Source: a virus. Taken from it: a stretch of 64,000 nt of DNA. Below are positions 1 to 28,700 of the stretch, piece after piece. Location: positions 94,022 through 158,021 of the IMG/VR virus record IMGVR_UViG_3300032291_003679. One strand, 5' to 3'. The position numbers and the translations under genes were made by a program. The first letter of the stretch is position 1. Each line of letters opens with the position of its first letter. The notes beneath the pieces were generated by a model that saw only the letters and a list, made by a program, of their open reading frames with translations, was not told where the DNA came from and ran no database searches.

Positions 1-3000
1 ACCATTGACTGCAGTTCACTACCCGAGAATCGTGGCTCGTTACCCTTACTTGGGGTCCACACCGAACCCCTGTTCTGCGTGGCCGCTTCTAGGGTGTACG
101 CCAGGTCGGTAGCTTCGATTATTTTGTTGCGATTTTCTCTGGTATTAAGTTTTGGAAAACTCTTGTCGATAAATTCGTAAAGAGCCTCGTAGACGGCGTA
201 TTTTGGCCTCTTCATCTCCGTGTCGAACCTCTCGCCAGTATCAGATTCTTTCCATACCGATTTTGCGTCTGGAAGAACTCCATTGCGAATCATTTGAGCA
301 ATTGTTGCAGTAGGAATTCCTTTTCTTCTCCACGCATCATTGATTCCGATGGAATCCGTTCCAAAGGCTGATGAAAGTCGCTCCTGTAGACCCTTCTTCC
401 ATTCTTTTCTATCAATTCCAAGATAATCAAGAAGCGAATCAAGGTCGAAGTCTTCTATCGCGGTCTTGTCATCTCTGATTATTTCCCCAGAATCATCTAT
501 AGAGCCTTCTTCTGGCAGAAGCATGTCAAAAGATTCACCATAAAGGTCTATCTCTGCCTCAGAATCTCCTCTTGTTGCACTGTCTGGATAAAAACGGCCC
601 GAGGCTCTAAATTTAGATGTTTCACTTACTTCTCCAAGTTGAACATATTCCTCAGGGGTCATTGATTGATTTTCTTCAACATCAAACCAATATGGGAACG
701 CATCTTTGCCAAACGTTTCAATAATGAATCTGTCACGCATATTTGCGCGGCCAGCATTTTCAGATGCCAAATCAATTTGCGAAATGTCTTCTATGATGTC
801 GCCCTCTGGGGACTGCACTACTTTTTTGGCTTCATTTGCAGAAACTGGAGCAAAGTATCTCCACGCTGAAAGCTCTTTCTGCTTACCGAGTTCAGCAATC
901 AAGAGGCGCACAGCGTCGTGGTTGATTCCAGCATCTGGTTCTCTCATCTTTGCTGCGTTAGCAGGGCTCAACCCAAGCATCTTAGAGATTTCATCCCTTG
1001 TTGCTGGTCGTGACTGTGTCCACCTGATTGTCGAACCGTCTTCGGTATTAAAATTTTCTCTTGAAGTAAATTCTGTTGGGATTCTTATCGTGTCAGCAAG
1101 CTTGTCAATAGAGAGCATCCACGTTTCGGCCGACGGATTCTCGTTTTTGTTGTTGTCACTAATTTTGCCAATACGCACACGTTCTTGACGTGCTTTCATC
1201 GCTTTGCCAACGTTCTGCATTGCGCCGCGAGTGCGTGATTGACGCACCGGCACTGAAAGCGAGTCGTCATCTATGTCAATCGCTATGCCGCGCTTACGTA
1301 CGCCGTCCCATGCCTGCATGGCGAACTGAAGTGCTTGTCTGTTTTTGCTGGAGTTTGGGTCTCCGTTTATTCTCAATCCGGCGAGCTGTTGTGCGCTTAG
1401 GCTACCTCCGTAGATATTGCTTCCAGAAATTTTTCTGCTTCTACGTGTCAGGCGTCTGCTTCCATCGGTGGTTGCTCCACTAGACAGTGTCATTCCTAGA
1501 ACGTCGTCGATGTCACCTTCGTCAACTACTTCATCATCGTCGTCACCTTCTGGAAGTACGAAATCGTCTTCTCCAGGTTTTCCATCTTCACCGAATTCGT
1601 AATCTTCTTCATCAATTTCAGTAATGATGCCTTCAACTTCTTCAGAATCACCATCATCATCAACTGGTACAGGAACCACAATAACTTCGTCGTCTTTTTC
1701 ATCAGTAGGACGAGCTGGGAATCCATTTTCCAGTTCTGAAAGCGACATGGCATTAATTGCCTTGTACCAATCTGGAAGAGGAATCCCGTCCTTATCACCG
1801 AAGGCTCCTCTATCAAGCTCTGGTGGGATATGCCCATCTACAACAGCTTGCTTCATTGCATCACGTATTGCTTTTGTTCGCTCGTCATGCAAGTAATAAA
1901 AGAAACCAGCATTGCCTGGGTCTAACATTTCTTTTGCGCGGGAGAATGCAACATGGACTAGGTTTCCCTCTTCCATGAAGCCAATACCAGCTTCGCCTTG
2001 CGCCAAGTTGCTTGGAAGATTCTGGGACGGGTCTCCCATGTCTTCTGCTACTGCGACGAATCGAGACTCACGACCCTTAGAGAGCTGCATTGTTGTGATT
2101 TCAACATCTCCGCCCCCAGTCTTGGCCGCATCGCGCACTGCTTGAGCAATTTGTGCAAGTATCTCAGTGCTTTCTTCTAGGGTTTCACCTTTAATAACAA
2201 AACCGTCATAATGGCGACGCCCAGCCTGTCCTTCAATTCTAAAGCCACGCTCAGCTTCCTGCATTACTTCAATTTTGTCCTGAAGTCCAAGCTGAATGAT
2301 TGCTTTTTCAAGGTCCCTGCGGTATCTGCCGTTGTTTGAGCCGCGACCTCCTGGTGGAGTATTTACCTTTTGACTTCCGTCTGGCCTGTCTATTGGTCGA
2401 CCGGTGTCCACGCCGTCGCCGGTTATTATTATTCGACCAGTTGCTTTTCCTGGGGATTTGTCACTACCCCCTTCAATTTCAAGAGCAGCATAAACAGCTT
2501 GCTTAAACGTGTCGTCAACGTTGGGAATAATGAAAAGCTTTTCTCTCTGTGTTGATTTAGCTTTCCATGCGGACTTTTGTCTTCCGGCTATTTCTCTTAT
2601 TTGGTCAACACCAACATTCCAGTTATCGAGTTCCATCGTCTTGCGTTCTGGAATTAAAACTGCTGGGATTATGTCAATTTTTTCCTTGCCCTTGGCTTTG
2701 CCTTTTTCGTGAACCCCTTTAACGACGGTTCCCTGAAGGAGTTCTAGCATTCCCTTTGTGCCAAGAGCTTTGCCTGTTGGGTCATTCTTGGGTGGCTTCA
2801 TTATCAAGTTATAAGCAGAACGTGCTTGCTGATATCTTGCTTGACTAAGAGCCTTTTGTAGCGCGCCAGTTGTCCAGACGTTGCCTAGCCACCCAGATGC
2901 CTGTGGTTTACCGAATCGTGCAACATAATCTCGCTGCTGTTGTGGTGTTCGGTTAATAAAATCAAGATGCTTCGTAAAGGTAACTAGCTGCTCCCACTTG

Positions 3001-6000
3001 GATGCTGGAATAATTACTTCCGGCAACTTTGGCATGCCGCGTTCGTCTTTCTTAACAGCCCTGCTGTTAATGACGATATTAATAAACTTAAGAGCTTCGT
3101 TGATTATTTCGGCATTTGTTCTACACAAAATCATCGTCGGCAGATTTCCCTTGTCGGCCTCTTCGTATCTGTCGACTATTCTTCCTTCCTTTGGCGCGTA
3201 AAGTTTATCTCTTAATTCCTTAAGGGCTTTATCTTGCTCTCTTCTGCTTAGGGATGAAATATTTAGCTTCTCCGTGGGGGAAGAATATTTTTTCTCAATT
3301 TTAGCAATCAGGAGCTCTCGGGTTGCATCATCAAGTTCTTCAACAGGGAAATTTCCGCGTCTGTCTTCTTTTGGTAACAATGGGTCAAACTGTCTATTAA
3401 TGACCGTTTGTGCCTGACCCTTAACATGCTTCCATGCAACTGGTTGTGGAACCCCTTGCTTCGTTAGATGCAGGTTCTGTCCACCCAAAACAAGGTTTGT
3501 CGCATGACCGATAACTCCGCCGTATCTAAATGACTCAGTAATGCTCTGCGCATACTCCGGCTGTAGTGACTCAAGAATATTTTTTGAATCACGGAATGCG
3601 TAAACTGCTTGCCTGTCGTCGCCAACAATTATAATTGGAAGTTTATCCCTATTTCTATCAAGGACAGTTTCCAGAACTTCGTTAGTATCTTGCGATTCGT
3701 CAACCATAAAGGCACCGAGAGGATTCTCTGGTGTCGCTACTTTTTTGCGTAAAGTTGCTCTGGACGTTTTCCCGGCCTTGTCCGAAATCGTCGTAACAAT
3801 CCACTCTTCTCCATCGGCAACATACGTATCGCCTTCACTAAGAGATGACGGAATGGCGACTTTTGCTCTTGTCTGATTGCTTGAATGGGTAATTAAGCCT
3901 GGGTCTGTTCTTAGGTCTGGGTCCGTCAGCATCCAAAGTTTTGCTATTAGTTCCATTGATGGCATAACGTTAGAGTCACCATCTGAAATTTGGTCAACTA
4001 TCGACTGGACCGAATCAATCCATAGCTTTGGAATTGCGCTTTCCGGCAAAATGCTATCTACTCCGCCGGGCTTTTTCCCATGGCCGCGCGGCGTATCTAA
4101 GTCTTCTATGGCCTTTTTGGGCTGCATAAAATGTTGGGCAGTAACTTTTTCTTCTTTCGAAAGCCCCCATCTTCTGAGGGCGTTGGCAAGAAGGTCACCC
4201 ATTTCAGAAAACTCTACGAACTCACCGTTTGGAAGTTCGAATCCATCAACTTCTACTTCAACTTTTGTTTTTTTGCCTTTTTCATTAAGGACTGGCTTGC
4301 CTGTCGTGTCTACGACAGTTACCATCTTTTTTTTCTTTTTTTGGTTTGGCCACTTGTTTATTTCAAGATGTTTTACAAAATCTTCACCCGACTCAAGCAC
4401 TACCCATCCCAATGCCTCTAGGCCTGGGTCTTCGCCTACAAATGTTTCTATTGTTCCATCAAAAGTTTCCCTGACAAAGTTTTTACCAATCATCTTTTCG
4501 ACGTCTGGTGTTTCTTCTTCGCTTTTCCACTTCGGATTACGTCGCATGGACTTTTTGCTATCGCGGGATTTGTTTAGCATTACCAGCTTCCGGCGCATAC
4601 CTTTTCCATACCTGGCGTCACCTTGGCCAAGGCGTAGCGACCACTGCCACAATTTGTCCGTTGTTGCAATACCAGTGTTTTTGGGGAATTCAACTTCAGC
4701 TTCTAATTGGTTTTTAGTGTTAAACACCGTGTAGAAAATGTTGCCAGTTTTATTAGCTTTTGCTAAGTCTGCTACCGTTTCTTCAATCTTGTCTGCTGGT
4801 ATTTTGCTGAAATCAACACCGTAAGTATCTGACAGATACGCTAATTGTTCAGCCCTGCGGACATCGCCTTCTGGCCAGAGTTCAAACTCTCTCTGAAGGG
4901 CCCACGCAATGCTCTTTAGTGTTGTTGTTTTGCCCGTTCCTGCACCAGCAAGAACGCTGAAAACTGCTGGATTTCTTTTATGTATAAGCGACATTGCTAC
5001 AGCTATGATGTCACGCTGTTCGTTAGTTGGTTCGTCCTTAAGGGCGAACGCAAGCCCAAGAGAGACTTTCTCGTCTATCCGTTCAATGTCTGCGACACCT
5101 TTTTGTTTGCCCTTTGGTGTTCCACTAATCGGGCCATCTTGTTTGCCGCTAGCTAACGCACCAGACGGAGTTATAACAACGCCGTCCTTGTTTTTGGCTG
5201 GGAGCCCTTCGAGTGACCGAGCGAGTTCTCTTTCGGAAGGGCTTGATGGAACAAAATCGTCAAAAGCTTCGGAGTCAAGAAGGTCTTCTAGCGGTCCTAC
5301 TATTGTCGTTGTCGGTTTGATTGGTTCAATGTCTTCGTATCCTGCAAGCATTGGCACTTCATACCATGAGTCCTCTTTGCCCTTGCGCTCATCGTCAGGG
5401 ATGCCGGCAAGACGACGCATTGTTGCCGAACGGTTAAGCAAGTAGTCGTTTGCTTGCTGAGCCTGAACGATTGCTCTATGAATTGCGAGAGGGTCTGAAC
5501 GTAGCTTCTTTAGCCAGCTATTTAGGTACAAAAGATGGTCTTCGCGTACTGTTGGCTCCAGACCCATTGACCCCATTGCGAATGCTGAACCTATTTCTGC
5601 AATCAATTCTTCGAATGCGTACTGGTCATCGCCGAATTCACGGCCCAGAGTTCTGTTTAGTCTTGTTGGGTGAGATGTCCAGTGAATTGTCTCATGCATT
5701 GCCGTCCCATAGAATGCGAGGGCATTCTCAAACTGTTCAAATGCTGGCATGTGAATCTTGTCAGTGGATGGACGATAAAAGGCTTGCTGGCCTTTTGATT
5801 CGACAAATGCTGGACCTATTTCTTGGATTACGTTTTCAATATCCTGCAACCGCTGCTCTTGGTTGATGTCAGTATCTTCAACTTCGTAATACTTGTTAGG
5901 AAGATTAGAAACATCATCAACGTTGTATACGGTTTGAACAACGTAATAGCGACCCATCTGGATTGCTTGTCCATCAGCGTTTATTACAGTTCTGCCATCA

Positions 6001-8918
6001 CGTGGCACAAGAATAGAAACGCCGCGAGCACTAGCTCCAGGCTTTAATTTTCCGCCTAGTTTTTCCCATTGCGTTCTGCCTGCCCATCTGTTTGTTTTGT
6101 AGCCGCGACTTTGCGCAGTAAGCAAAAGGGCTAGCTGATTCATGCCCTGGTAAACACGATTTTTAGTTGGGTTACGCGCAAAGATTTCCGGGTTGCGCCA
6201 CGGCATCTTCCATTGTTTTGTTTTGTCAGGGTTATCAATTAAGTCTTGCAGGACTTCGATAATCTCCTCGGCCATTCTCTTGTACATTTCCGCAAGGATT
6301 GGAGAGTCTTCTGGTATTTCTGCTTTATCTGGAAGTTTTCCGGATGAAAGTGCAGCACTAATTGGGCCGTCAAATTTTCTTATCTCGTTGTTGGTTCTCT
6401 TGTTTTTTGACTTATTTAGATATTTTGCGTAACCGCTAGAAAGCTTTTGCTCAGGGTCGTCTGGTATTGCTACGAACTCTGGCTTTCGGCCGCGGGCAAG
6501 TTCGAGGTTCTCTCTATCCTGGTCTTGCTGCATGATGGACGTGACAAGGTCCCTATCAGGAGGGATGCGAACGAACCCTGGCTTTCGGCCGCGGGCAAGC
6601 GGAGTGCTTCTGTCGATGACTTCTGGCTTCTCGTCTGGTATCTCTACAAATTCTGGCTTTCGGCCTTGGGAAAGACGCGTATTTCTATCGAGAACCTGTG
6701 GTTGCTTCGGCTTTTTCTTAGGCTTATCTGCCTCCGCTATTTCGTCTTCAGCCATCTTCTCGACACGATTCATATACTTGTCAAGGTCAGCAATAGCCTT
6801 CTTTAGCTTCTTTATCTGGTCAGCGTCAGTAGCGCCGTCCAGCACTCCCTGTAGTTCGTCTCTTTGAGATTCTGCGGCACCGTATTTTTCGGCTGAATCA
6901 ACATCTGGGTCGTCTATTCGCGGAAGGTCTAGCGGGATTTTCCCTGAAGATAGACGCTCGGTCCGAGCAATAGTTTCTGATTCTGGCTTAGAAAGCTGAC
7001 GGGGTGACGGCTTTGGGTTACGAATTGAGCCAGGACCATCTGGAGTTGGGTCCGGAGTAGCAAGTGGGACGCCACGAAGGAATAGACCTTCACCGACGAC
7101 TCCGTTGAGGTTTGCGTCACGAGCTGTGAATGGGTCAAAGTCTTCTGCCCCGATTGAGGTAAAGAACCTTCCACGTGAACGACCGCCTCCAATGTTAGGA
7201 CGGTCGATTAGGCGACTGCCGATAGCGCGTCCGAGGCGGTAACCAGCCGCCTTCCACTCTATGTCATTCTCACCTAGAGATTTTTTTTTTAGATTATCAA
7301 CAGCCGTATCGATGGCTTCAATCAGCTCAAAGCTGACACCAGAGGTGATGACGATGCCGTTGACATCCACAAAGGAGTCGACATTGTGATAGTCAAAGAT
7401 TGGGTCTAGAGCTTGTTTTACTTGAAAGGCAAACTGAGGCACCACTGGAAGCAAGTATGGCTTCTGGTCGAAATTGTCATCTTTTGTTGAGCCAAACTCG
7501 CTGAGAAGCTTAAACTTACGACGCTTCTTGCGGCGTCTCCCAACAACTCCACGGAGTGCTGCAACTGCAAGTTCTCCTGGATACTTTACTTCCAGGTCAG
7601 CAATGTAGTCCTCTTCGTTGAATTCTTCGTCAAGTTCATAAGTCTTCTTAGATGCTGTGTCGCCGGTGACTACTCCCTTGGGAATTACGGCAAATCTGCA
7701 CTTGCCTTCTGGCTCGACATCCATGGCGATTATCTTGCAAGAATTTCCACCTTGGTAGAAGACGCAGTTTGCGCACTTAACGCCAATTGCAGCAACTGGG
7801 TTTTCAGCTGCAGGCTTATAGCCAGCCCAAACGCCGTCAGAATCCTCGTTGAAACGACCGTGGCGCTTAACAATCTTAAGAAGAGCATCTCTTAAGTCTG
7901 TTTCTTCTTGGTCGAGATTGTTTTTGTCAAACTCTGGCTGATTTCTTTCATCATCCATGTCTTCGTATTGGACGGGGGGCAGAGGAACCATACGGTTGCC
8001 GTTTTCTCCAGGCTTAATAGCAATTGGCATCGCCGGCATTTGTGATGGGCGAATCACTCTTTGTGGCTCATTTGCAGGGACACCAGGTGCCAGCATTGGC
8101 ATATTCTGCATTGGCGCAACTGGCTTGCGTGCTGGCATCACCACAATCTGCTGTGGTGGACCAAACATGTAGCGTCCGCGGTTCCCACTAAATCCGCACT
8201 TGTAGCGACCGACTTCACCATTGTCCATTCTGCGGGCAAATGTAATTTCGTCGTCGTTTACGTCCATCAGTGAAACTTTTGCACCAAGGATTGTAGCTAG
8301 TTGCTTTTCTATTTCAGCCTTGTCGATGGCGTCTTCGTCGTCTTCCATCATCGCCATCATGACGCCACTGGCGTTGTCGTCAGACTTAACTGAAATTGTT
8401 CCAGTAAGTTGATTTGCTCCATGTAAAACGGGCGAGACCTCGTAAAGTTCAAGTTCGTAAATAACGTTTGCTTGAGACTTTTGGTCAAACTGGGCCCGAA
8501 GGGTCTTGTATCCGATTGACCATTCCTGCTCTTCTCCAAAGAAAGCAACCATGGCAAAAGCTTCCCGACCTTTTTCTGAATTAAGGTTGAATTGCACACG
8601 GGCGAACAGGCCACCAATGCCAGCCATTTTCATCTTAAGTGGCAAGCGATTGTCCGTATTTGGAACTTCGTAAATCTCTAGAACTTTACCGATTGGGTCA
8701 TTCCAGCTATGTCCCCAGACAACTCGTGGCTTACGGCGTTGGAGGCTCTTGGCGAATGCTCCACTTGCAACAATGTCACCAACGGAGTCTTTGTTACCAA
8801 TACCAGCAACGAAACACTCAACTATGCCCTGAGCCTCATCAAGGTTGATGTTTCCGCCCTTCGAAGAGAGCGAGTTACCAAGCGAAGTTGACTTGTATTC
8901 GAATAGTTCAGATGGCAT
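1..8918 (-). CDS. Giant prohead-protease-fused polyvalent protein (>=2972 aa, runs off the left edge): HK97-type protease + HiPIP-like domain + ArdC-like ssDNA-binding/zincin module + SF1 (UvrD-like) helicase + unknown domain
   Basis: ATG at 8918 (MPSELFEYKS...) with GAAGGG upstream. Hand translation found no in-frame stop down to position 3, consistent with its absence from the ORF track. The frame is maintained across the A10 run at 7281-7290 (CTA AAA AAA AAA TCT). Confidence 0.85.
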   Translation of the reverse strand, partial: MPSELFEYKSTSLGNSLSSKGGNINLDEAQGIVECFVAGIGNKDSVGDIVASGAFAKSLQRRKPRVVWGHSWNDPIGKVLEIYEVPNTDNRLPLKMKMAGIGGLFARVQFNLNSEKGREAFAMVAFFGEEQEWSIGYKTLRAQFDQKSQANVIYELELYEVSPVLHGANQLTGTISVKSDDNASGVMMAMMEDDEDAIDKAEIEKQLATILGAKVSLMDVNDDEITFARRMDNGEVGRYKCGFSGNRGRYMFGPPQQIVVMPARKPVAPMQNMPMLAPGVPANEPQRVIRPSQMPAMPIAIKPGENGNRMVPLPPVQYEDMDDERNQPEFDKNNLDQEETDLRDALLKIVKRHGRFNEDSDGVWAGYKPAAENPVAAIGVKCANCVFYQGGNSCKIIAMDVEPEGKCRFAVIPKGVVTGDTASKKTYELDEEFNEEDYIADLEVKYPGELAVAALRGVVGRRRKKRRKFKLLSEFGSTKDDNFDQKPYLLPVVPQFAFQVKQALDPIFDYHNVDSFVDVNGIVITSGVSFELIEAIDTAVDNLKKKSLGENDIEWKAAGYRLGRAIGSRLIDRPNIGGGRSRGRFFTSIGAEDFDPFTARDANLNGVVGEGLFLRGVPLATPDPTPDGPGSIRNPKPSPRQLSKPESETIARTERLSSGKIPLDLPRIDDPDVDSAEKYGAAESQRDELQGVLDGATDADQIKKLKKAIADLDKYMNRVEKMAEDEIAEADKPKKKPKQPQVLDRNTRLSQGRKPEFVEIPDEKPEVIDRSTPLARGRKPGFVRIPPDRDLVTSIMQQDQDRENLELARGRKPEFVAIPDDPEQKLSSGYAKYLNKSKNKRTNNEIRKFDGPISAALSSGKLPDKAEIPEDSPILAEMYKRMAEEIIEVLQDLIDNPDKTKQWKMPWRNPEIFARNPTKNRVYQGMNQLALLLTAQSRGYKTNRWAGRTQWEKLGGKLKPGASARGVSILVPRDGRTVINADGQAIQMGRYYVVQTVYNVDDVSNLPNKYYEVEDTDINQEQRLQDIENVIQEIGPAFVESKGQQAFYRPSTDKIHMPAFEQFENALAFYGTAMHETIHWTSHPTRLNRTLGREFGDDQYAFEELIAEIGSAFAMGSMGLEPTVREDHLLYLNSWLKKLRSDPLAIHRAIVQAQQANDYLLNRSATMRRLAGIPDDERKGKEDSWYEVPMLAGYEDIEPIKPTTTIVGPLEDLLDSEAFDDFVPSSPSERELARSLEGLPAKNKDGVVITPSGALASGKQDGPISGTPKGKQKGVADIERIDEKVSLGLAFALKDEPTNEQRDIIAVAMSLIHKRNPAVFSVLAGAGTGKTTTLKSIAWALQREFELWPEGDVRRAEQLAYLSDTYGVDFSKIPADKIEETVADLAKANKTGNIFYTVFNTKNQLEAEVEFPKNTGIATTDKLWQWSLRLGQGDARYGKGMRRKLVMLNKSRDSKKSMRRNPKWKSEEETPDVEKMIGKNFVRETFDGTIETFVGEDPGLEALGWVVLESGEDFVKHLEINKWPNQKKKKKMVTVVDTTGKPVLNEKGKKTKVEVEVDGFELPNGEFVEFSEMGDLLANALRRWGLSKEEKVTAQHFMQPKKAIEDLDTPRGHGKKPGGVDSILPESAIPKLWIDSVQSIVDQISDGDSNVMPSMELIAKLWMLTDPDLRTDPGLITHSSNQTRAKVAIPSSLSEGDTYVADGEEWIVTTISDKAGKTSRATLRKKVATPENPLGAFMVDESQDTNEVLETVLDRNRDKLPIIIVGDDRQAVYAFRDSKNILESLQPEYAQSITESFRYGGVIGHATNLVLGGQNLHLTKQGVPQPVAWKHVKGQAQTVINRQFDPLLPKEDRRGNFPVEELDDATRELLIAKIEKKYSSPTEKLNISSLSRREQDKALKELRDKLYAPKEGRIVDRYEEADKGNLPTMILCRTNAEIINEALKFINIVINSRAVKKDERGMPKLPEVIIPASKWEQLVTFTKHLDFINRTPQQQRDYVARFGKPQASGWLGNVWTTGALQKALSQARYQQARSAYNLIMKPPKNDPTGKALGTKGMLELLQGTVVKGVHEKGKAKGKEKIDIIPAVLIPERKTMELDNWNVGVDQIREIAGRQKSAWKAKSTQREKLFIIPNVDDTFKQAVYAALEIEGGSDKSPGKATGRIIITGDGVDTGRPIDRPDGSQKVNTPPGGRGSNNGRYRRDLEKAIIQLGLQDKIEVMQEAERGFRIEGQAGRRHYDGFVIKGETLEESTEILAQIAQAVRDAAKTGGGDVEITTMQLSKGRESRFVAVAEDMGDPSQNLPSNLAQGEAGIGFMEEGNLVHVAFSRAKEMLDPGNAGFFYYLHDERTKAIRDAMKQAVVDGHIPPELDRGAFGDKDGIPLPDWYKAINAMSLSELENGFPARPTDEKDDEVIVVPVPVDDDGDSEEVEGIITEIDEEDYEFGEDGKPGEDDFVLPEGDDDDEVVDEGDIDDVLGMTLSSGATTDGSRRLTRRSRKISGSNIYGGSLSAQQLAGLRINGDPNSSKNRQALQFAMQAWDGVRKRGIAIDIDDDSLSVPVRQSRTRGAMQNVGKAMKARQERVRIGKISDNNKNENPSAETWMLSIDKLADTIRIPTEFTSRENFNTEDGSTIRWTQSRPATRDEISKMLGLSPANAAKMREPDAGINHDAVRLLIAELGKQKELSAWRYFAPVSANEAKKVVQSPEGDIIEDISQIDLASENAGRANMRDRFIIETFGKDAFPYWFDVEENQSMTPEEYVQLGEVSETSKFRASGRFYPDSATRGDSEAEIDLYGESFDMLLPEEGSIDDSGEIIRDDKTAIEDFDLDSLLDYLGIDRKEWKKGLQERLSSAFGTDSIGINDAWRRKGIPTATIAQMIRNGVLPDAKSVWKESDTGERFDTEMKRPKYAVYEALYEFIDKSFPKLNTRENRNKIIEATDLAYTLEAATQNRGSVWTPSKGNEPRFSGSELQSM
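1925..5040 (-). other. Superfamily 1 (UvrD/Rep-like) helicase domain with large insertions, within the giant ORF
   Basis: Q motif TNEQ; Walker A AGAGTGKT (about 4926-4950); DESQD (3687-3701); VGDDRQAVYAFR; TESFR; ILCRTN; TMQLSKGRE; LVHVAFSRAK. Confidence 0.9.
5430..6295 (-). other. ArdC-like module (ssDNA-binding N-domain + zincin metallopeptidase) within the giant ORF
   Basis: WKMPWRNP...ARNPTKNRVYQGMNQLALLL...RWAGRTQW, then AFYRPSTDKIHMP...FYGTAMHETIHWT (HExxH at 5682-5696)...RLNR...YAFEELIAEIGSAF...YLNSWLKKL. Confidence 0.88.
6462..6690 (-). repeat. Three copies of the peptide repeat L[SA][QR]GRKP[EG]FVxIP[DP] in the giant ORF linker
   Basis: DNA repeat ctggctttcggccgcgggcaag at about 6479-6500 and 6578-6599, plus a variant ctggctttcggccttggg at about 6653-6670. 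Confidence 0.85.
7281..7290 (-). other. A10 homopolymer, a candidate slippage/frameshift site between the protease part and the cargo part
   Basis: Ten T on the + strand. The -1 frame stops at 7270-7272 (TGA) and the +1 frame stops at 7274-7276 (TAG). Confidence 0.5.
7690..7830 (-). other. HiPIP-like 4-Cys domain within the giant ORF
   Basis: AGYKPAAENPVAAIGVKCANCVFYQGGNSCKIIAMDVEPEGKCRF: C-x2-C-x8-C-x12-C with an upstream Tyr, as in small HiPIPs. Confidence 0.6.
8385..8860 (-). other. HK97-family prohead (maturation) protease domain of the giant ORF
   Basis: GNKDSVGDIVASGAFAKSL, catalytic His in VVWGHSW, catalytic Ser in EWSIGY, ELYEVSPVLHGAN; lies directly downstream of the portal. Confidence 0.92.
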
Positions 8919-9049: not shown

Positions 9050-11155
9050 TTAAACAGTCTGCCCAAAACCCCAAGCCGCCCTGGTTTCCCGCTCCGCGAA
9101 AGAGTCTTGTTGATGAGCGAAAAACTCCGTAAACATCTCTACAAGTCCGTCTCGGAAGAAAGAGAATCTCTTTTCCTCGTCCGCATACTCAAAAGATTTG
9201 AGCATTAGTGAATTTATTTCACTGAAGTGTGACTCGTTAATCTTTTTGATTCTTGCAACATGAGCATCAATCATTGCTCGAACATCTTTTGCGGGCAGTG
9301 CCTTTACTCTGAGGCCCTTCTCCGATGCTTCGTTCACTCGTGACTCAAACGAGTCATTGATAATTGAAGAAATAACCGGCCTGATGTCTTCATCAAATTG
9401 CTTGTTCCATGTGTCTATGGACAGAACCGATTCGATGTCAAGAGTTCCATGCATTAGTGCTTTTTTGGACTTTAGTCCGCTTGCTTTTTCAAGAACTACC
9501 CGCTGCTGGCGCTCCATGACTCTTTCTACTCCGCGTGAGAGAATGTTGGTCCAACGCTCAATCGATTGTTCATTTCTATCGACTGATTCTTTTTCTGAAT
9601 CATCAGACTTTGTCTCAATCTCAGATTCTGGGGATGAAGCGACCGTTGTTGGTGCTGGAGGCATTGCTGTCTGCGGTATCCCGCCGAAAGCCTCTGGTGG
9701 AACAGTTGTTTGCGCAAGCTGTCCTTCTGCTGCTGTCTCGGCAAGAGCACCAGCCATTGTGTTCGTATCGAGCGGCATGACTTCTCCGCCTGGAGGAATA
9801 GGTGCTGGGGCACCTGGAGGCATTCCTGGCATACCTGGGGGCATTCCTGGCATTCCTGGCATTCCTGGCATTCCTGGCATTCCTGGTGCTCCTGGAATCT
9901 GTGTTTGTCCCTCTTCCATCTTCTTTTTGGTATTGGCGATAGGAATGAGGTTTGGATTTTGCAGCAGAGAGTCAGCAAGGTCTGCTTCTACTTCTTTGCG
10001 TGAAGAACCCATTCTGTATTCGTTTGCGCTGATAAGACCAGACTGGAACTCTTGGAGAAGGTATTTGTCTCTCTCTTGCTTATAAAGCATAAGGATTGGC
10101 ACTTCGGACGTATCAAAATCTAAATAGAATTTTTCATCAAGTTCGTCAAGGCCACGAGCCAATGGCTCTAGGTGAGGAAGCATTGTCTCCATCCAGAAAA
10201 CACGAATTTCTTCAGCTGCGTTACTAAATGTTCTTCCTGCAGCATTTCCGATAACTGATTCCGGGACACCGAAGGATGAAAGAATTTCTTCTTTTGTTAT
10301 CTGTCGCATCTGAATATATGCAGCATCACGCGGGTTCGCGGAAGTATCAACAAAATCCACCCCATCGTCTGCTGCAATAACCGTCGTATGGCCTGCTTTT
10401 GCAAGATTTCCACGGAATCTGCTTCTTAGCTCTTCCTTGTCGTCCTCGTCAATTGCGCCCCTAACGACCAAAAGTCCACCAGGGCGGCCATCGTTTAGGA
10501 GGTAGTTGCGGTTATAAAGTTTGGCTAGGTTTTCAATTTCAATTGCTACGCCAGCTGCCTCTAGGGGTGTTAGAGACAGGTATGGGTCAAGTGGATGAGG
10601 TCTTCTTATCCAGCAAACATCTTCTGGCTTGAGAATTCTTTTTTCTCCATATGGCATCTGCACTTCATAGCCAGATACAAAAGTTTTAGGGTCGGGGATT
10701 GGGGCTGTTGATTGGGGCGGAAGAAGGTTGAGCGCGATGATGCGACCATCTCGCCCAAATATTTTCTCAATAAATGCGCCGCGAGTTCCAAGAAGCAACT
10801 GGGCAGAAAGCCTGTATCTGAATATAAAGGAGTTTTCTCCAACATTTGCTTTATTATTCAGAAGCTCCAGAAGGGTTGAGCGATTTGCTTCTCTACCTAC
10901 AACTATTTCGCCCTTATTTGAGTTGTTTTTTCTGAGAATTATTGGAAGTCGCGCTTGGTTGCCAGCGATTGCATCAATACACCTGTTAACCCAGGTGATT
11001 TTTGACATTCCTTCACGGTAGGCGCGCTCAATATCCCAAGAGTCACGGTATGCCTTCCCAGCAAGAGATGGGTTAATGGAGATAGGCGCTCCATACCCAA
11101 CGTCCTTTCTGGACTGGGAATTTATGTTTTTGTTTTGAGGTGCGTTCCAAGCCAT
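9050..11155 (-). CDS. HK97-family portal protein with a Pro/Gly/Met linker and a C-terminal MuF-like helical extension
   Basis: WVNRCIDAIA, QLLLGTRGAFIE, LSLTPLEAA, NDGRPGGLL, EILSSFGVPESVIG, TFSNAAEE; position between terminase and protease. Confidence 0.92.
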   Translation of the reverse strand: MAWNAPQNKNINSQSRKDVGYGAPISINPSLAGKAYRDSWDIERAYREGMSKITWVNRCIDAIAGNQARLPIILRKNNSNKGEIVVGREANRSTLLELLNNKANVGENSFIFRYRLSAQLLLGTRGAFIEKIFGRDGRIIALNLLPPQSTAPIPDPKTFVSGYEVQMPYGEKRILKPEDVCWIRRPHPLDPYLSLTPLEAAGVAIEIENLAKLYNRNYLLNDGRPGGLLVVRGAIDEDDKEELRSRFRGNLAKAGHTTVIAADDGVDFVDTSANPRDAAYIQMRQITKEEILSSFGVPESVIGNAAGRTFSNAAEEIRVFWMETMLPHLEPLARGLDELDEKFYLDFDTSEVPILMLYKQERDKYLLQEFQSGLISANEYRMGSSRKEVEADLADSLLQNPNLIPIANTKKKMEEGQTQIPGAPGMPGMPGMPGMPGMPPGMPGMPPGAPAPIPPGGEVMPLDTNTMAGALAETAAEGQLAQTTVPPEAFGGIPQTAMPPAPTTVASSPESEIETKSDDSEKESVDRNEQSIERWTNILSRGVERVMERQQRVVLEKASGLKSKKALMHGTLDIESVLSIDTWNKQFDEDIRPVISSIINDSFESRVNEASEKGLRVKALPAKDVRAMIDAHVARIKKINESHFSEINSLMLKSFEYADEEKRFSFFRDGLVEMFTEFFAHQQDSFAERETRAAWGFGQTV
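9840..9884. repeat. Five tandem 9-mers GGCATTCCT encoding (PGM)n in the portal linker
   Basis: Direct reading of the sequence. Confidence 0.95.
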
Positions 11156-11497: not shown

Positions 11498-12811
11498 ATG
11501 GCTGGAAAAGCTAACTGGGAAGAAGTCCTTGAATACCTCAGCCCCAAAATGCCTTCATTTTGTCCGGAGGAGCCATCTATAAACCAAAAAGTTTTCTTGA
11601 GAACCAATTCACTTGAGGGACTATTTGGTGGGGCTGCCGGTGGAGGCAAGTCCAGTGCTCTTTTGATGGCTGCACTGCAATACGTAGATGTCCCAGGGTA
11701 CTCTGCAATCCTTTTCCGTAGGACATTTGCGGACCTTTCGCTCCCTGGAGCTCTGATGGACCGCTTTAAGTCATGGATGAGCAACTACGACGATGTCCAC
11801 TGGAACAACAACACATTCGTTGCCACCTTCCCATCCGGTGCGCGTATTTCTTTCGGATACTTAAATAACGTTAATGACTATCTCCGCTACAAAGGTTCCG
11901 AATTTCAGTTCATAGGAATGGATGAGGTCACGGAAATCCGTGAATCTGACTACAGATACCTGTTCTCCCGTCTCCGCCGTCCTGCAAGCGGACCAATCGC
12001 CCAAGTCCCACTCAGAATGAGGGCTGCGTCAAACCCTGCCCCCAACTGGGTGCGTCAGCGCTTTATCGTGGAAGGCAAGGAGACTGGAAGGGTGTTTGTC
12101 CCATCTACGCTAAAAGACAACCCTGGAATTGACGCTGACTCATACCGACAGGCTCTGTCAGCCCTTGACCCAGTGGAAAGAAGAAGACTTGAAGAGGGCG
12201 ACTGGTGGTCAACCACCCTGGGCAGCCTGTTTGAGCGGGAATCTTTCATAATTATTGACGCCGACGAGATACCACTTATAACCAACTCAGCGAGAGTTGT
12301 CAGGTTCTGGGACCTTGCAGCCACCGAGCCTCACGCTGGCAACCCTGACCCTGACTGGACGGTTGGGACGCTCATGCTGTTTGACGGGGGGGTTTCCTAC
12401 ATTCTTGATGTTAGGAAGGCGCGCGTAAAAGGAGAAAAAGTAGAGCAATTAATCTCCGAGACCGCCGAAGATGACGGATACGGGGTTTCAATTAGAATGG
12501 AACAAGAACCCGGTTCTTCCGGAAAGGCCTTGGTTGACCAGTACGCCAGATACGTCGTTCCTGGGTATGACTTTGGCGCAATGAGGCCGACCGGAGACAA
12601 GGTGACAAGGGCTAGGCCGTTCGCCGCTGCTGCCGCCAACGGAAACGTTCGCCTGGTTCGTGCCCCTTGGCTCACTGACTGGCTGGACGAATTTTCTTCA
12701 TTTCCAGAAGCCGCGAACCACGACGACCAGGTTGACTCCGCTGTTGGAGCTTTTACTTTTTTGACTGGTTTGGGGTTGCCTCAACGCAAACGTGCTTCTA
12801 TAATTTTCTAA
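11498..12811 (+). CDS. terL: Terminase large subunit
   Basis: Walker A GGAAGGGKS, Walker B FIGMDE, ASNP, RNase-H-like nuclease motifs FWDLAA, DPDWT and HDDQVDS. Confidence 0.95.
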   Translation: MAGKANWEEVLEYLSPKMPSFCPEEPSINQKVFLRTNSLEGLFGGAAGGGKSSALLMAALQYVDVPGYSAILFRRTFADLSLPGALMDRFKSWMSNYDDVHWNNNTFVATFPSGARISFGYLNNVNDYLRYKGSEFQFIGMDEVTEIRESDYRYLFSRLRRPASGPIAQVPLRMRAASNPAPNWVRQRFIVEGKETGRVFVPSTLKDNPGIDADSYRQALSALDPVERRRLEEGDWWSTTLGSLFERESFIIIDADEIPLITNSARVVRFWDLAATEPHAGNPDPDWTVGTLMLFDGGVSYILDVRKARVKGEKVEQLISETAEDDGYGVSIRMEQEPGSSGKALVDQYARYVVPGYDFGAMRPTGDKVTRARPFAAAAANGNVRLVRAPWLTDWLDEFSSFPEAANHDDQVDSAVGAFTFLTGLGLPQRKRASIIF

Positions 12812-13357: not shown

Positions 13358-14038
13358 ATGACACAGAACAGCCAAGACATTGCCCGCCAGCTCGCAGAGC
13401 CATTTCCAGAAGAAATGGAAAAGACTCTCGTCAAGAGTGGCGTTTCTCTTATTTACCTTCCAATTAGCGAAGTGATTAATCGACTTAACAAAGTTCTCGG
13501 TGTAGAGAACTGGTCTTTTGAAATCATCTCAGTACGTCGTGACGAGGTGGACGTTGACGAAATAATCGCGCACGTTTCACTGTCTGCTGAAATCGATGGC
13601 AAATCTATTGTTAAGCATGGATTTGGTGGCCAGACAGTCAAGCGCCAAAGAAAAGACAACAAGCCTGTCGACCTTGGCAACGACTTCAAGGGAGCAGTAT
13701 CTGACGCCCTCAAGAAAGCCGCTCAACAGTTAGGCATCGGTCTATATCTTGCTCGGTCTGCAGACGCGATGGATGCCGAGGACGCAATTCATTCTGCTCC
13801 ACAGCAACCCGAGCAACCATCGGAGATTGACGAAAGATGGAACAACTTTGTATCTGTTACAAAAACACTCACACAAGAGCAAAAAGACTCTTTGAACGAT
13901 TTTTGGGCAAAGCATTCTGGCGGCAAACCAAAGCCAACACGTGCCACAGCAACAGAAGATGACATTGATGTCCTTGTTGTTGAAGCAATGCGACTTTCGT
14001 TCGGTGCAACTCTTGTAGAGCCAACAGATGGCAAGTGA
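13358..14038 (+). CDS. Rad52/Rad22-family (Sak-like) ssDNA annealing protein
   Basis: LAEPFP...YLPISEVINRLNKVLGVENWSF...KGAVSDALKKAAQQLGIGLYL. Confidence 0.85.
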   Translation: MTQNSQDIARQLAEPFPEEMEKTLVKSGVSLIYLPISEVINRLNKVLGVENWSFEIISVRRDEVDVDEIIAHVSLSAEIDGKSIVKHGFGGQTVKRQRKDNKPVDLGNDFKGAVSDALKKAAQQLGIGLYLARSADAMDAEDAIHSAPQQPEQPSEIDERWNNFVSVTKTLTQEQKDSLNDFWAKHSGGKPKPTRATATEDDIDVLVVEAMRLSFGATLVEPTDGK

Positions 14039-14810
14039 TGAGCCAGTGGTTCTTGTAGCCCCAGATAGGCTTTCGCCGTCTTCCATATCAACGTTTCAGC
14101 AATGTCCACTGAAGTTTAAATTCAGCAAAATTGACGGACTTCGTGATGCCCCAACAGAAGCAACAATGCTGGGAAATTTCGTTCATGAGATTCTAGAAGT
14201 AATGTATGCACTTCCTGCTGAACAGCGGACGCAGGACACGGCCCGCGCTTTGGCTCGTGACTTGTGGTCTTCTAAGTGGGAGGAACAGGTCACAACGCTG
14301 ATTCACACAGAGAAAGAATTAAAACTCTTCAGATGGACGGCATGGTGGTGTGTAGAGAATCTATGGAACCTTGAGGAACCCAAAGAAGTCGAACCTTATT
14401 CGATAGAAGAGCATGTAGAGGGAGAGATTTCTGGGATTAAGCTTCACGGCTTCATAGACAGATTGCACTTCTCTGACGGAGTAGCAAAGGTGTCTGACTA
14501 CAAGACAGGCAAGACACCTAAAAAGAACTACATCGATGACAAGTTCTTTCAGTTAATTATCTACACTCAGCTTTTAGAGAGCGCCGGGATTAATGCGGAC
14601 AAAATTGAAGTCGAGCTTCTTTACCTGAAAGACGGAGTCAGGTTCGCAAAAGAAATTACAAAAGAAGATGTGGCCAAGGTCGCATCCGTGATTGCTGAAG
14701 TAAGAGAAGGCATAGAGAAGAGATGCGAGGAAGGGTATTTTGAGCCGAACAAGTCAATCTTATGCAACTGGTGCGGATTCAAGTCAATTTGTCCAGCATG
14801 GCAAAAGTAA
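14028..14810 (+). CDS. RecB/AddB/Cas4-like PD-(D/E)XK exonuclease with Fe-S staple cysteines
   Basis: LSPSSISTFQQCP, GNFVHEILE, GFIDRL, DYKTGK, QLIIY, CNWCGFKSICP. Confidence 0.88.
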   Translation: MASDEPVVLVAPDRLSPSSISTFQQCPLKFKFSKIDGLRDAPTEATMLGNFVHEILEVMYALPAEQRTQDTARALARDLWSSKWEEQVTTLIHTEKELKLFRWTAWWCVENLWNLEEPKEVEPYSIEEHVEGEISGIKLHGFIDRLHFSDGVAKVSDYKTGKTPKKNYIDDKFFQLIIYTQLLESAGINADKIEVELLYLKDGVRFAKEITKEDVAKVASVIAEVREGIEKRCEEGYFEPNKSILCNWCGFKSICPAWQK

Positions 14811-14820
14811 GGGTTCATCT

Positions 14821-15336
14821 GTGAGCCCTAAATGGAATGATGACATCTTCGCACGTACAGTTGCAGAAGAGGTAAAGAATAAAGTTACCCCTATTGAAAG
14901 AGATGAGCTACGTCGCCCAGAGAACTGGGACAGATGGAAGCGCGCTCTTGTTGCTTTGTCGGATAATCTGCAAAACCAGATTGAGCTAATTGAAGAAGAC
15001 AACGAGTCGGACCAAAGACGCTATTCTTCGCTTGGGTCAAAAGGCAATAAGTTGACAACTGAAACTCGTCGCTACTATGACGAGAAAGCAACCAAGATTA
15101 AAAGATTCAAATATCACGTAGACAGAAGACTTGATGAGGTCTGCGTAATGATTGAAACTGGAGAGGCCACACAGAGTGACGGATGGAAAGAGGTCGACTT
15201 TTACCGTAGAGCGATAATTGCGCACCGCAACATGCTCCGAGACTTTGACCTAGAGGATACAGCGATTGACCGCTCCCTCTGGGATTGCCTTGACGGTAAA
15301 TGGACCTTTGATTCTATTAACAACGACAACTTGTGA
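14821..15336 (+). CDS. Hypothetical coiled-coil protein
   Basis: ORF in the operon; probable GTG start at 14821 after AAGGG (the track extends it to 14740). Confidence 0.65.
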   Translation: MSPKWNDDIFARTVAEEVKNKVTPIERDELRRPENWDRWKRALVALSDNLQNQIELIEEDNESDQRRYSSLGSKGNKLTTETRRYYDEKATKIKRFKYHVDRRLDEVCVMIETGEATQSDGWKEVDFYRRAIIAHRNMLRDFDLEDTAIDRSLWDCLDGKWTFDSINNDNL

Positions 15337-15353
15337 TGTAGTCTTGCGCTTAG

Positions 15354-15707: not shown

Positions 15708-15756
15708 GTGTATTATTTAATCATTCCTAGATATCGCTACCTGGGGACAGTATAGG

Positions 15757-15806
15757 TACAAGGGCGGGCAGGCGCATAATTTGACGACTGCCCGCCTTTG
15801 TATTTG
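15757..15806 (+). terminator. Strong hairpin, terminator-like
   Basis: TACAAGGGCGGGCAG-N16-CTGCCCGCCTTTGTA followed by TTT. Confidence 0.6.
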
Positions 15807-15821
15807 CTATAGTCACTGCTT

Positions 15822-16685: not shown

Positions 16686-16687
16686 AG

Positions 16688-17566: not shown

Positions 17567-17567
17567 C

Positions 17568-25780: not shown

Positions 25781-28700
25781 ATGGCAGACGAAAACGTCGA
25801 CATTAAGATTAGGTTTGACGCCAAAACGGCGGACCTTAATCGTGCCATCGCAAAACTTGCTGTACTAGAAAAACAAGTAAAGAAGCTCTCCAGCGGTAGA
25901 GAAGAAGCGTTTGCGCGACGAACAACAAACACCCTTAGCAATGTAACCAAGGGCTGGAAGCGTAGTTTTGACTTCATAGATGCCGGTGCAAAAATGGCCG
26001 GTAAGGGACTCACCAAGTTTCTTGGATTAGCCATAAAGGGTGTAGTCGTAGAAATGGGGCTCCTGGCTGCAGCAATGGTTGGCGTCCACGCACTGTTTGT
26101 CGCTGGCCAATTTATAATGAAGGCGTACCGAGGGGCAATGCAAATGCTGGCGGCAGGCGCAGCTGGTGTAACAGTCGCTATGGCTGCTGCGTCTGCAGCA
26201 ATCCGTGAGCAGCAGGCTGCAATATTTGCCTATAGAGGCAAGGGTGCTCCGGCTTTTGGTTCAGCAATGAACCAGACCCGCATGGGGATGCGCAACCTTC
26301 AAAGCGATGCAAGTTTAGCGACTTTAGGTGTCGAGGCATTAAATAAGGCCTACGGCAATATGTCGAAGTCAATGAATACTGCCCAGATAAATAAAAGCGG
26401 CGGTGCAATAAAAGCATTGATGGATTTTGGCTCCGCTGGTCAAGACCCTGCAAAAGGACTAGAACAGGTATCGATAGTAATAGCATCTTTGTCTGATAAG
26501 AAAAAGGGAATTTCAGATGTCATAACAGAGGCCAAAAAGCTTGGCCCAGAGATGGAGCAGGCCCTAAAAAAAGCCAACGTTAAGACAAAGAAGCAATTTC
26601 AAGAATTGCTCATGTCTGGGGAGCTTGCTAAAAGCGGTGGCGTTACGGGCCAGTTTGATGCCGTAAATGGCACCCTAATTAGTCAACTAAAAGGATACTT
26701 CACTCGCCTGCGTGGTGAGTTTGCAGACTTTGGTGACCAGTTCCTAGAACCGCTAAAGGAAGCTTTCGACCGAGTCTTTGGAACAATCAGACGTGACTTA
26801 CAGCGCGTAATGGGCGCTATCATGTTCAGCTTTGGCACCCAGGGTGTTATTGATAATTTTTCAAGTGCTATAGAAAAAGCATCTAACTGGCTCGTAAAAA
26901 TGATTCGCGAATATCTGCCTGGAGCTATAGGCATGTTCGACAGAATCGGTGATTGGTTTACTAGATTTAAGCGCGGGTGGAACCTTGTACTTGACCAAAC
27001 CAGACCGCTCATAGACGGTGCTCGCGTTCTTTACAAAGCATTTGAGCCAGTTTGGGACGCGCTGAAGCGTGGGGCAGACAACTTAACCCTGTTTCGCGAA
27101 CTGCTTATACAAAACCAAGACAATGTTCAAGAATTTGGTGAACGTATTGGGAAACTGATTGATTCACTTTCTAAGTTCTTCATGAACATGAAGAAAATGT
27201 TTATGGATATGCTTCCGTTCCTTAACGACCTTGTCTCTGGCCTGACGACAGTGTTTGACATGATTTCCAAGATATTTACTTCCGGCGCAGGCAAAGGTCT
27301 AGCTGGAGCGCTTGCCCCTCTTATGGGGTTTTCTATTTTGGGAAGAGCTCTTTCTGGAGTAAAGGGACGCCTAATGCCGAACGTTGGCGCAATGTCCGCA
27401 CAGCAAATGAATGTAACGGCAAACAACGTTTCTATCGCCAACCCAGTTGGTCCAGTGGCGGGGTCGCGAACAATGTTTGGCGGTGGACCACTTTTTTCTG
27501 GGGCACCTGGCAGCTATCCGTCTGGACCATCTGGGACACCTGGAGCAACATCATCTGCAGGAACAGCAACAGCAGCAGGTAGTGCAGCGCTTGCTGCTCT
27601 CTCGTCGGGCAAAACTTCTGGTGGAAACTTTTTAAAGATGCCAAGCGGAGGAGCAGTAAGCAAACTTGCAGACAATCCACGCAACACACTTAGATACAAC
27701 ATGCTCACTGGAAGCAGGATGACGGTTCGCGGGAGCGATATAAATCAACGAGAAAAAGAACGGTTTACTCAACGCCAACAATTGGGACGTGGCCTTGGCT
27801 ATTACATGTTCGGTCAAGCTTCTAACCCATACGCGAAAATGGAAGGAGATGCAGCAGCTCGTGCCTCCGCCCGCTTTGAGGCAACACAGGGGCTGCAGAG
27901 CCTGTCTATGGACGAGCTACATAAAGTAGCGGTAGATAAACATGGAATTACTGGGTTGACCGATAAGACATCACGTACAGACGTAATTGCACGAATACAA
28001 GGTTCTGCTGGGTATAAAGATGAAGATTACGCCGGAATGAGGAAGGTAGGACTCGGAGAGGCGATTAAAAACACGAGAGGAAGAATGCGCTTTGCCGCTA
28101 CGGGGGTAATGGATAGGGCACAGTATGCAGGAAGACGTGTTTCTGGGGCATACCAAGGAGCCATGGCTTACTTTAATTCTGGTGCATTTAATCCTGAAAC
28201 AGGTGAATATTACGACCTTAAAGATGCTCGTGACAAAATAGATGAGCGGTTCCAGAAAACCAAAGATGAAGCTGGTGGCAGTAAAAGAAAACTTCTTAGA
28301 GGAAGAATAGATAGGGCAAGAGATTCAAACAGGCTTAACAGAACGTATGGAAAATTTGGCAACGCATACAATGTGAAGTTTGCTAAAAGCGCCAGCGGAC
28401 GTATGGGTGCAGGCATGGGTCTTGGTCTAATGAGCCAAGTCGCTCCAGAAGAAATGCGTGGAGCAATGGCGCTGGGTGCAACTGTTGGACAAATCGACCC
28501 ACGTTTGGGAATTGCTGTTGCCGGAATAGGCGGAGCCATGAAGGCTCAGGGAGCAATGAAGGGTGCCCTCTCTGGCGCTGCTGGTGGAGCTGCTTTAGGC
28601 GGAATGCTTGGACCGCATGGAGCAGCAATCGGTGCCGGAATCGGTCTTGTTGTTGGCGGCATTATGGGTGCCGTTAATAAGGGAAAACAGCAGCTAAAAG

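Follow-up and report, generated by a model that had tools for sequence, protein, structure and literature searches.

A prohead protease heads a giant cargo polyprotein in uncultured tailed phages, with a conserved A-run and a lineage-specific motif that suggest dosed loading and self-processing

Introduction

Why the maturation protease of a tailed phage should form the head of a chain of some three thousand amino acids, most of it made of unrelated enzymes, is the question raised by the stretch of DNA analysed here. This stretch, called the window throughout, comprises 64,000 nucleotides and corresponds to positions 94022-158021 of the IMG/VR record IMGVR_UViG_3300032291_003679, a 158,021-bp virus record with direct terminal repeats. 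Its minus strand carries one gene in which an HK97-type prohead protease is followed, in the same open reading frame (ORF), by an ArdC unit, a helicase and a conserved C-terminal domain. We found that this fusion is real and conserved, and not an artefact. The explanation that best accounts for the observations as a whole, which we consider moderately probable, is that the amount of a protease-cargo chain is set by slippage at an A-run, and that the chain would be loaded into the prohead, cut at a repeated motif and ejected.

Results

The protease-led chain and its conservation

A first-pass annotation, made from the letters of the window alone, had read the gene as one uninterrupted minus-strand frame running from position 8918 past the window edge, with a length of more than 2970 amino acids. 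The frame was borne out: the ORF listing gives it as open from 3 to 8918 on the minus strand (2972 amino acids, 3' end open within the window), and the complete record has no stop in frame before the end of codon 3020, the stop lying 48 codons past the window edge. The ORF does therefore continue into the adjacent part of the record, but the product (3020 amino acids, 337 kDa) is not far larger than had been estimated.

1..8918, minus strand: protease-led polyprotein gene, its last 48 codons and stop lying beyond the left window edge
7281..8918, minus strand: conserved N-terminal module (amino acids 1-546, 60.5 kDa), made of the S78 protease and three small domains
8394..8825, minus strand: Peptidase_S78 (HK97-type prohead protease) domain, amino acids 32-175

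The protease domain matched PF04586 with 44.2 bits against a cut-off of 21 when the polyprotein was searched with Pfam, and with 49.8 bits in a six-frame search of the genome, where it was the sole S78 match; the same region matched the PHROG for head maturation protease (E 4.6e-27). Residues H70, S134 and H166 are invariant in 35 aligned sequences. Together with the place of the gene after that of the portal, these results uphold the proposal that this is the maturation protease of the phage. In the AlphaFold 2 model of the module, the last helix terminates at residue 546.

A word-indexed search with the first 560 amino acids as query, limited to proteins of 1661-5285 amino acids, retrieved 283 homologues of that size range that share this region nearly over its full length, with 48-98% identity among the 120 matches listed. 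An exhaustive search gave 243 clusters at 50% identity (E<1e-30), ranging from about 180 to 5358 amino acids, and S78 was N-terminal in all of them. When the domain strings following the protease were compared across relatives, as the first-pass annotation had proposed, the N-terminal module proved constant and the cargo variable, including ArdC/MPTase, UvrD, DEAD, sigma70 region 4, pentapeptide repeats, HTH, KTSC and DUF2958. One distant relative is fully syntenic, with TerL, portal, polyprotein, scaffold-like gene and giant gene. An assembly artefact or a frameshift error as the source of the fusion is ruled out by the 283 homologues, by the conservation of the junction and by independent contigs.

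The junction between module and cargo

The conserved module ends at a run of ten adenines on the coding strand, which is followed at once by stops in the two other frames.

7281..7290, minus strand: A10 run (CTA AAA AAA AAA) at the junction of module and cargo, candidate transcriptional-slippage or frameshift site
7270..7276, minus strand: stops in both shifted frames just past the run (TAG at 7276-7274, TGA at 7272-7270)

The run consists of codons 544-546 (KKK) and the final base of the codon before them; read here with nine adenines it would lead to ..KKNL-stop, and with eleven to ..KKKISR-stop. It is the longest homopolymer of the 158-kb genome and the sole one of at least 10 bases, and it provides the only one of 37 Lys-Lys-Lys triplets encoded AAAAAAAAA, in a genome where AAA makes up 54% of the lysine codons. 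Sequences of the type A_AAA_AAG and A_AAA_AAA, as well as A-runs longer than seven, are established sites of -1 frameshifting or transcriptional slippage (PMC3711429, PMC5009743).

We compared the junction in 73 related IMG/VR loci, examining the length of the A-run in assembled DNA contigs, and found four states. The in-frame A10 is present in the window and in 14 loci, always with exactly ten adenines despite diverged flanks; the preceding codon differs (CTA, TTA, GTA or ATA), and so does its amino acid, but it always ends in A, and both shifted frames stop within 2-7 codons. In the second state, found in three loci from three metagenomes, the sequence is TTA AAA AAA AAG (A9), the module ORF ends seven codons later, and an LSSG-rich cargo ORF of more than 3400 amino acids continues in the -1 frame. 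The third has GGT GGT TCA AAA AAA (A7) with a stop at once or shortly after, and a cargo of up to 3340 amino acids again in the -1 frame, while the fourth comprises in-frame fusions without an A-run. Wherever the ORFs are split (20 of 20 loci), the cargo lies in the -1 frame with an overlap of 34-109 nucleotides, and an alignment of the transframe products with the fused proteins is colinear right through the junction. The cargo ORFs of split loci lack a conserved start preceded by a Shine-Dalgarno sequence; the earliest candidate in the A9 type is a TTG located 186 nucleotides downstream. According to a quick IQ-TREE analysis, the states are clade-specific and stably inherited and the A7 clade is monophyletic; this tree does not settle whether the A9 pair nests within the A10 clade. 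Contigs assembled in two independent studies and from another sample of the source study cross the A10 run without indels, with 14-61 substitutions nearby.

The A10 run thus looks like a conserved recoding site rather than an error. The first-pass annotation had allowed that a miscounted A-run might mean that module and cargo are separate genes; relatives with ORFs split at A9 or A7 do exist, but their cargo has no start of its own. As the run is invariant, both shifted frames are closed by stops and the -1 cargo of other clades is start-less, two products are probably made, here a protease module of about 60 kDa and the 337-kDa fusion, and likewise a module and a fusion in every lineage with a run, with the state of the junction setting which of them is the default. 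Moreover, since the split cargo ORFs lack starts and homology resumes at the slip site, the most likely role of the A-run is to fix how much long fusion is made relative to the short module.

The region from the slip site to the first LSSG (amino acids 547-655, 6954-7280 on the minus strand) contains motifs conserved in all lineages, fused as well as split, namely K-x-L-G-R-x-[LI]-G and a D-x-D-x-D/N-G-x-V-x-E-G loop resembling a calcium-binding site. In the LSSG lineage it also contains AIGSRLIDRP, akin to a motif of the LGSR/FASR type, which could be a site for release of the module.

A repeated motif between modules

The units of the chain are separated by a short repeated tetrapeptide, LSSG, which is also present in the protein at the tape-measure position.

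6942..6953, minus strand: LSSG site 1, amino acids 656-659
6432..6443, minus strand: LSSG site 2, amino acids 826-829
6339..6350, minus strand: LSSG site 3, amino acids 857-860, directly ahead of the ArdC unit
5145..5156, minus strand: LASG, amino acids 1255-1258, at the ArdC/helicase border; LSSG in most relatives
1476..1487, minus strand: LSSG site 4, amino acids 2478-2481
25781..30586, plus strand: protein of 1601 amino acids at the tape-measure position, with LSSG at amino acid 36 (25886-25897) and amino acid 607 (27599-27610)

In the whole genome LSSG was observed 22 times against 1.6 expected, and it is confined to four of 191 ORFs: the polyprotein (at amino acids 656, 826, 857 and 2478), a protein of 2391 amino acids (five copies), another of 3479 amino acids (11 copies) and the tape-measure-position protein (two copies). 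It is the most repeated tetrapeptide in 121 homologues of the polyprotein, with 959 copies and the consensus [R/K/G/S]-LSSG-[R/K/A]. In an alignment of 16 sequences the sites form islands of 90-100% conservation within linkers conserved at 0-30%, and they partition the chain: the module with its tail (1-655) comes first, then a pair of short variable pieces, and after these the ArdC unit, the helicase unit and the C-terminal domain. Homologues without an MPTase match still have 6-9 copies.

Other lineages have a repeated motif of their own, GLAS, (D)GFAS(R), (P)LGSR(S), GMRS or FSSG, the generic form being hydrophobic-x-Ser-[G/R/S]. Unbiased proteome-wide counts in two other complete genomes, G001 and G002, gave GFAS 21 times against 0.8 expected in the former and LGSR 22 times against 1.0 in the latter; these copies fall in the polyprotein and other giant proteins, and GFAS also in the tape measure at the homologous position. 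In the GLAS-type locus L008, GLAS occurs 15 times in the polyprotein, three times in the next giant and in none of 18 other genes. The motif proper to each genome brackets the ArdC unit, though the place of this unit in the chain differs, and in G001 it brackets DUF2958 likewise. The pattern looks like a protease recognition code and fits a self-processing polyprotein, and its presence in the tape measure suggests that one enzyme processes both this protein and the head cargo. The two other giants have no protease of their own and would be substrates in trans.

The homologous sites of the tape measure are GLASR (about amino acid 50) and GFAS (amino acid 632) in G001 and LASR (about amino acid 42) in G002. 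The 2391-residue giant is encoded at 85000-92175 and the 3479-residue giant at 58545-68984 of the record, both on the minus strand; the latter has a DnaQ/RNase_T-like exonuclease domain, and homologous giants in G001 and G002 carry the motifs of those genomes.

Cargo units and smaller domains of the chain

The cargo consists of three units:

5157..6338, minus strand: ArdC unit, amino acids 861-1254, with ArdcN at 877-968, MPTase-PolyVal at 1027-1149 and HETIH at 1075
1488..5144, minus strand: SF1 (UvrD-like) helicase unit, amino acids 1259-2477, with motifs I, II, III, V and VI and large insertions
1..1475, minus strand: conserved C-terminal domain, amino acids 2482-3020, running past the window edge

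The protease, the ArdC-like unit with its HExxH and the UvrD motif series, all named in the first-pass annotation, gave Pfam matches above the cut-offs, with which the PHROGs agree, and HETIH and the helicase motifs were read directly. ArdcN (PF08401) scored 62 bits against 22.6 and MPTase-PolyVal (PF18818) 137 bits against 27.5, and the unit is 32-33% identical to phiCbK-type ArdC-like proteins over about 290 amino acids. Its domain order is intact, with the single-stranded-DNA-binding ArdC-N followed by the HExxH zincin, and an anti-restriction role is predicted. The helicase was recognized at amino acids 1723-1779 as UvrD-helicase/AAA_19 (PF00580, 42 bits, partial; PF13245, 33 bits) and by the PHROG for DNA helicase (E 1.5e-25), and the motifs GAGTGKT (1325), DESQD (1740), GDDRQ..YAFR (1766), SKGRE (2280) and VAFSRA (2323) are present. 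The unrelated domains S78, ArdcN, MPTase and SF1 helicase in a single ORF make the chain a predicted kit of the polyvalent-protein type.

The C-terminal domain (about 540 amino acids) is conserved and is the last unit throughout the LSSG lineage, even where the middle of the chain differs by 1800 amino acids. Its model is confident (predicted local distance difference test, pLDDT, of 86). Fold searches in four libraries gave nothing clear: the best matches were E 0.8 with Foldseek against the PDB, E 0.1 in BFVD, a best Z of 4.7 with VIA-align wide, which covers a small helical subdomain only, and template modelling (TM) scores of at most 0.27 in the ESM Atlas.

Within the N-terminal module, a cysteine motif had been described as HiPIP-like:

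7698..7775, minus strand: four-Cys motif C-x2-C-x8-C-x12-C, amino acids 382-407 (C382..C407)

This identity was not sustained. The match to PF01355 is below threshold (15.5 bits against 22, E 0.02, profile positions 22-52 of 66), and no HiPIP was among the matches when the four-Cys stretch was searched against the sequences of solved structures. The four cysteines are there, and a metal site is possible. Pfam and PHROGs found nothing on residues 185-335 and 430-660 of the polyprotein.

Genomic context

The genes that adjoin the polyprotein on its upstream side are those of packaging:

9050..11155, minus strand: portal protein, directly upstream of the polyprotein and on the same strand
11498..12811, plus strand: large terminase subunit (TerL), transcribed divergently

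The position directly after the portal, with portal and TerL adjoining, is that of phage polyvalent proteins. Downstream and on the same strand follow a gene for a protein of 523 amino acids and then that of the 2391-residue giant; Pfam and PHROGs gave zero matches for these two and for a protein of 171 amino acids. An HK97-fold capsid protein (454 amino acids, PF05065) with an N-terminal extension of about 170 amino acids (delta region) is encoded 13.5 kb further on. The phage is a myovirus, with sheath, tube and chaperone genes followed by the 1601-residue protein at the tape-measure position.

The 523-residue scaffold-like protein (record 92190-93761, minus strand) contains a pair of Cys clusters, a very acidic stretch and a beta-rich domain, and has at its C terminus a 'DGSYPI..DLRNAI..GRAKDKE' domain. 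Its C-terminal 70 or so amino acids match the C terminus of the 'capsid maturation protease' (about 485 amino acids) of Gordonia phage GMA6 and relatives, and the domain is common to GMA6-type proteases and proteins of Microbacterium and Bacteroides phages. The protein is conserved in G001 and G002, and G001 has a second copy of the domain at 83544-84479. Complex prediction of the capsid delta region and the scaffold-like protein against module residues 470-546 gave a score of 0.00, which is not evidence either way.

A gene for a WhiB-family transcription factor is located at 71836-72177 of the record (minus strand; PF02467, E 3e-16). This gene, the actinophage-like portal and protease, and the occurrence in lake and freshwater metagenomes point to a freshwater actinobacterium as host. 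Beside the terminase, at 13358-18909 of the window (plus strand), there are genes for an Erf/Rad52-like annealing protein, a Cas4/PD-(D/E)XK exonuclease, a ParB-like nuclease and a PAPS-reductase-like protein, a recombination/early block that is syntenic in the distant relative L008. The portal (9050-11155) has repeated P-G-M-P / M-P-G-M tetrapeptides, in at least three copies here and up to five in the portals of relatives, which rank among the most over-represented tetrapeptides of the proteome. A proteome-wide excess of GATG (78 copies), TGPT (30) and GPTG (35) indicates a collagen-like Gly-X-Y repeat protein, probably a fibre.

Discussion

On the reading that we favour, standard decoding would give the 337-kDa fusion, and an mRNA one A shorter or longer, or a shift of the ribosome, would lead to a stop within 2-3 codons and hence to the bare module of about 60 kDa. 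Like HK97-type proteases, the module would enter the prohead, and the fused fraction would bring the cargo along. Cutting of the chain at the motif between modules would follow, with the S78 protease itself as the most likely enzyme, and the proteins that carry the motif (the polyprotein, the two other giants and the tape measure) would be the ones that should exit the virion along with the DNA. Once freed, the enzymes would be ejected together with the genome and be active ahead of all phage gene expression. We infer packaging, S78 cleavage and ejection from the genes, as well-motivated steps. We hold more tentatively, as plausible but somewhat more doubtful than the mechanism itself, the broader proposal of a large uncultured clade of tailed phages, probably actinophages, in which cargo is dosed by recoding in the manner of Gag/Gag-Pol and a lineage-specific cleavage code marks the ejected proteins.

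Several observations weigh against this interpretation and must be taken into account. The capsid delta region is the canonical substrate of a prohead protease, and a search for the lineage motif at a conserved position in it found none; conversely, the tape measure lies outside the prohead and carries the motif, and the cutting need be neither confined to the capsid nor done by S78. A tape measure with the motif and a capsid delta region without it make the notion that the protease cuts everything inside the prohead too simple. The self-processing polyprotein proposed in the first-pass annotation therefore stands in part: the conserved motif between modules fits it, but the motif reaches the other giants and the tape measure and is absent from the capsid delta region. 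That the motif covaries with lineage does not on its own tell which enzyme is at work. Downstream RNA structure was not consistently significant at four junctions (z of -0.44, -1.28, 0.01 and -1.97). Transcriptional slippage, for its part, requires no such structure. It should also be considered that C-terminally extended assemblins lose activity (PMC4498786), that many 337-kDa chains per head would compete with the DNA for space, and that no cultured relative has the fusion: a tblastn search of 50,697 deposited phage records found it in none, retrieving only stand-alone ArdC proteins and proteases of about 420-485 amino acids.

The motif in the tape measure, outside the capsid, and its absence from the capsid protein are also what would be expected if the polyprotein worked in the cytoplasm, the fusion being an expression strategy that frees the enzymes late in the producing cell while only the module enters proheads. 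We regard this as unlikely, although it comes first among the alternatives. Anti-restriction of the ArdC type is needed when DNA enters the cell and not late, as known for the family; the gene is part of the late head module, with the portal gene on one side and the scaffold-like gene on the other; the cargo repertoire is that of polyvalent proteins predicted to be packaged (Iyer et al. 2017, PMC5512222); and dosing by recoding makes most sense for the stoichiometry of assembly. An uncut chain, ranked next and also improbable, would have the motifs serve as flexible linkers or as docking or ejection signals, and it has precedents in the N4 virion RNA polymerase (vRNAP, about 3500 amino acids), packaged unprocessed (PMC5512222), and in phage P1 DarB, packaged at 250 kDa; moreover, the motif marks all the proteins expected to pass through the tail, tape measure included. 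However, a strictly conserved tetrapeptide with basic flanks in variable linkers is a typical feature of sites cut by viral proteases; the motif also delimits the domains precisely, and it changes by lineage yet keeps a hydrophobic-x-Ser core, much as assemblin sites do (small P1 residue, hydrophobic residues upstream).

Cleavage at the motif need not be the work of S78, and the MPTase zincin, another phage protease or a host protease might do it instead, a possibility that we rank slightly lower still and consider doubtful. The same two facts, a capsid protein that lacks the motif and a tape measure that has it, speak in its favour, and autoprocessing of polyvalent proteins by MPTase was proposed by Iyer et al. 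(PMC5512222); yet homologues without an MPTase match keep their 6-9 LSSG sites (MPTase could act in trans), and S78 is the sole domain common to all the polyproteins. That the A10 run has no function, being a tolerated homopolymer or an error of length in a gene with a single product, fused or split, appears very improbable. Homopolymers are prone to error in sequencing and replication, and the evidence comes from assembled contigs; against this stand the exact length in the window and in 14 loci that come from many metagenomes and have diverged flanks, the conserved stops in both shifted frames, the avoidance of three consecutive AAA lysine codons elsewhere in the genome, and the classical -1 heptamers with start-less cargo ORFs at the same junction in sister clades.

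If the slippage-dosed, motif-cut chain is correct, it would be a third route of head loading in tailed phages, beside short targeting peptides (T4, P1) and MuF/portal fusions, in which cargo is fused to the maturation protease itself and its amount is set by a slippery site. It would provide a code readable from sequence for proteins that are processed and probably injected (the 'ejectome'), so that hundreds of unlabelled modules of lake and soil phages could be listed as candidate counter-defence factors of the first minute. Stoichiometry based on recoding, known for tail chaperones and capsid decorations, would be extended to extensions of up to about 4800 residues, and a natural chassis for delivering large enzymes into bacteria is suggested. 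Proteins of the polyvalent and ejection kinds are known already; it is the proposed mode of loading and dosing that appears to be undescribed, and a full-text literature search for protease-led chains of this sort, for LSSG and for frameshifting in a prohead-protease gene retrieved no paper.

Among cultured phages, those nearest in S78 domain (42-44% identity) and in portal are Gordonia, Brevibacterium and Microbacterium phages with a GMA6-type protease. There, protease, acidic linker and a 'DGSFPI..DLxNAI..GRAKDKE' domain form one protein of about 420-485 amino acids, whereas here the acidic region and the C-terminal domain belong to the separate 523-residue gene that follows the polyprotein. 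Phage polyvalent proteins likewise join many unrelated effectors (ArdC-N, MPTase, helicases) in one giant chain encoded by the portal or terminase, and the prediction is that they are packaged and reach the recipient cell with the DNA; autoproteolysis has been proposed for them (PMC5512222). In the survey by Iyer, Burroughs, Anand, de Souza and Aravind (2017, PMC5512222), assemblin-like peptidases are rare in these proteins and 'always at the C termini', while in the present family the protease is N-terminal and the invariant head; neither a recoding junction nor a lineage-specific motif common to other virion proteins is described there.

Loading of proteins into proheads and their ejection with the DNA, anti-restriction proteins included, is known for the T4 internal proteins and Alt, the SPN3US ejection proteins and the Dar proteins of P1, of which DarB (250 kDa) is present in about 40 copies per virion; the T4 and SPN3US proteins are also trimmed by the prohead protease, at a motif that is specific to the phage. 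Those systems use short N-terminal targeting peptides on separate proteins, with no fusion to the protease, no multi-enzyme chain and no slippery junction. Two products in a set ratio from A_AAA_AAG or a run of A9-A10, with a stop just after in the shifted frame, are made by dnaX (tau/gamma) and lambda gpG/gpGT, which differ in their proteins and biology; here the extension reaches about 4800 amino acids, and whether the long product is in frame or shifted varies by clade.

If the reading that we favour holds, there would be a close mechanistic parallel among tailed phages, herpesviruses and retroviruses. In herpesvirus pUL26/pUL26.5, a protease of the same superfamily is likewise N-terminal in a longer chain, and a rare long and an abundant short form come from one locus; it releases itself at the R-site, its cleavage sites (YLQA|T, VQA|S) having a small P1 residue (PMC4498786), and is activated by crowding inside the capsid. 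The C-terminal partner is in that case a scaffold that carries the protease in, and the two forms arise from nested in-frame transcripts, whereas here the partner is 2500 amino acids of enzymes and the scaffold-like protein is a separate gene downstream. Retroviral and totiviral Gag/Gag-Pol use a slippery junction to fix how much long fusion is made relative to a short assembly protein; the fusion carries enzymes into the particle and is cut by its own protease (PMC5009743), as is proposed here. The differences are that the present system belongs to a double-stranded DNA tailed phage, that the carrier would be the prohead protease module and not a coat protein, and that standard decoding in the window yields the fusion, the short form being the shifted product.

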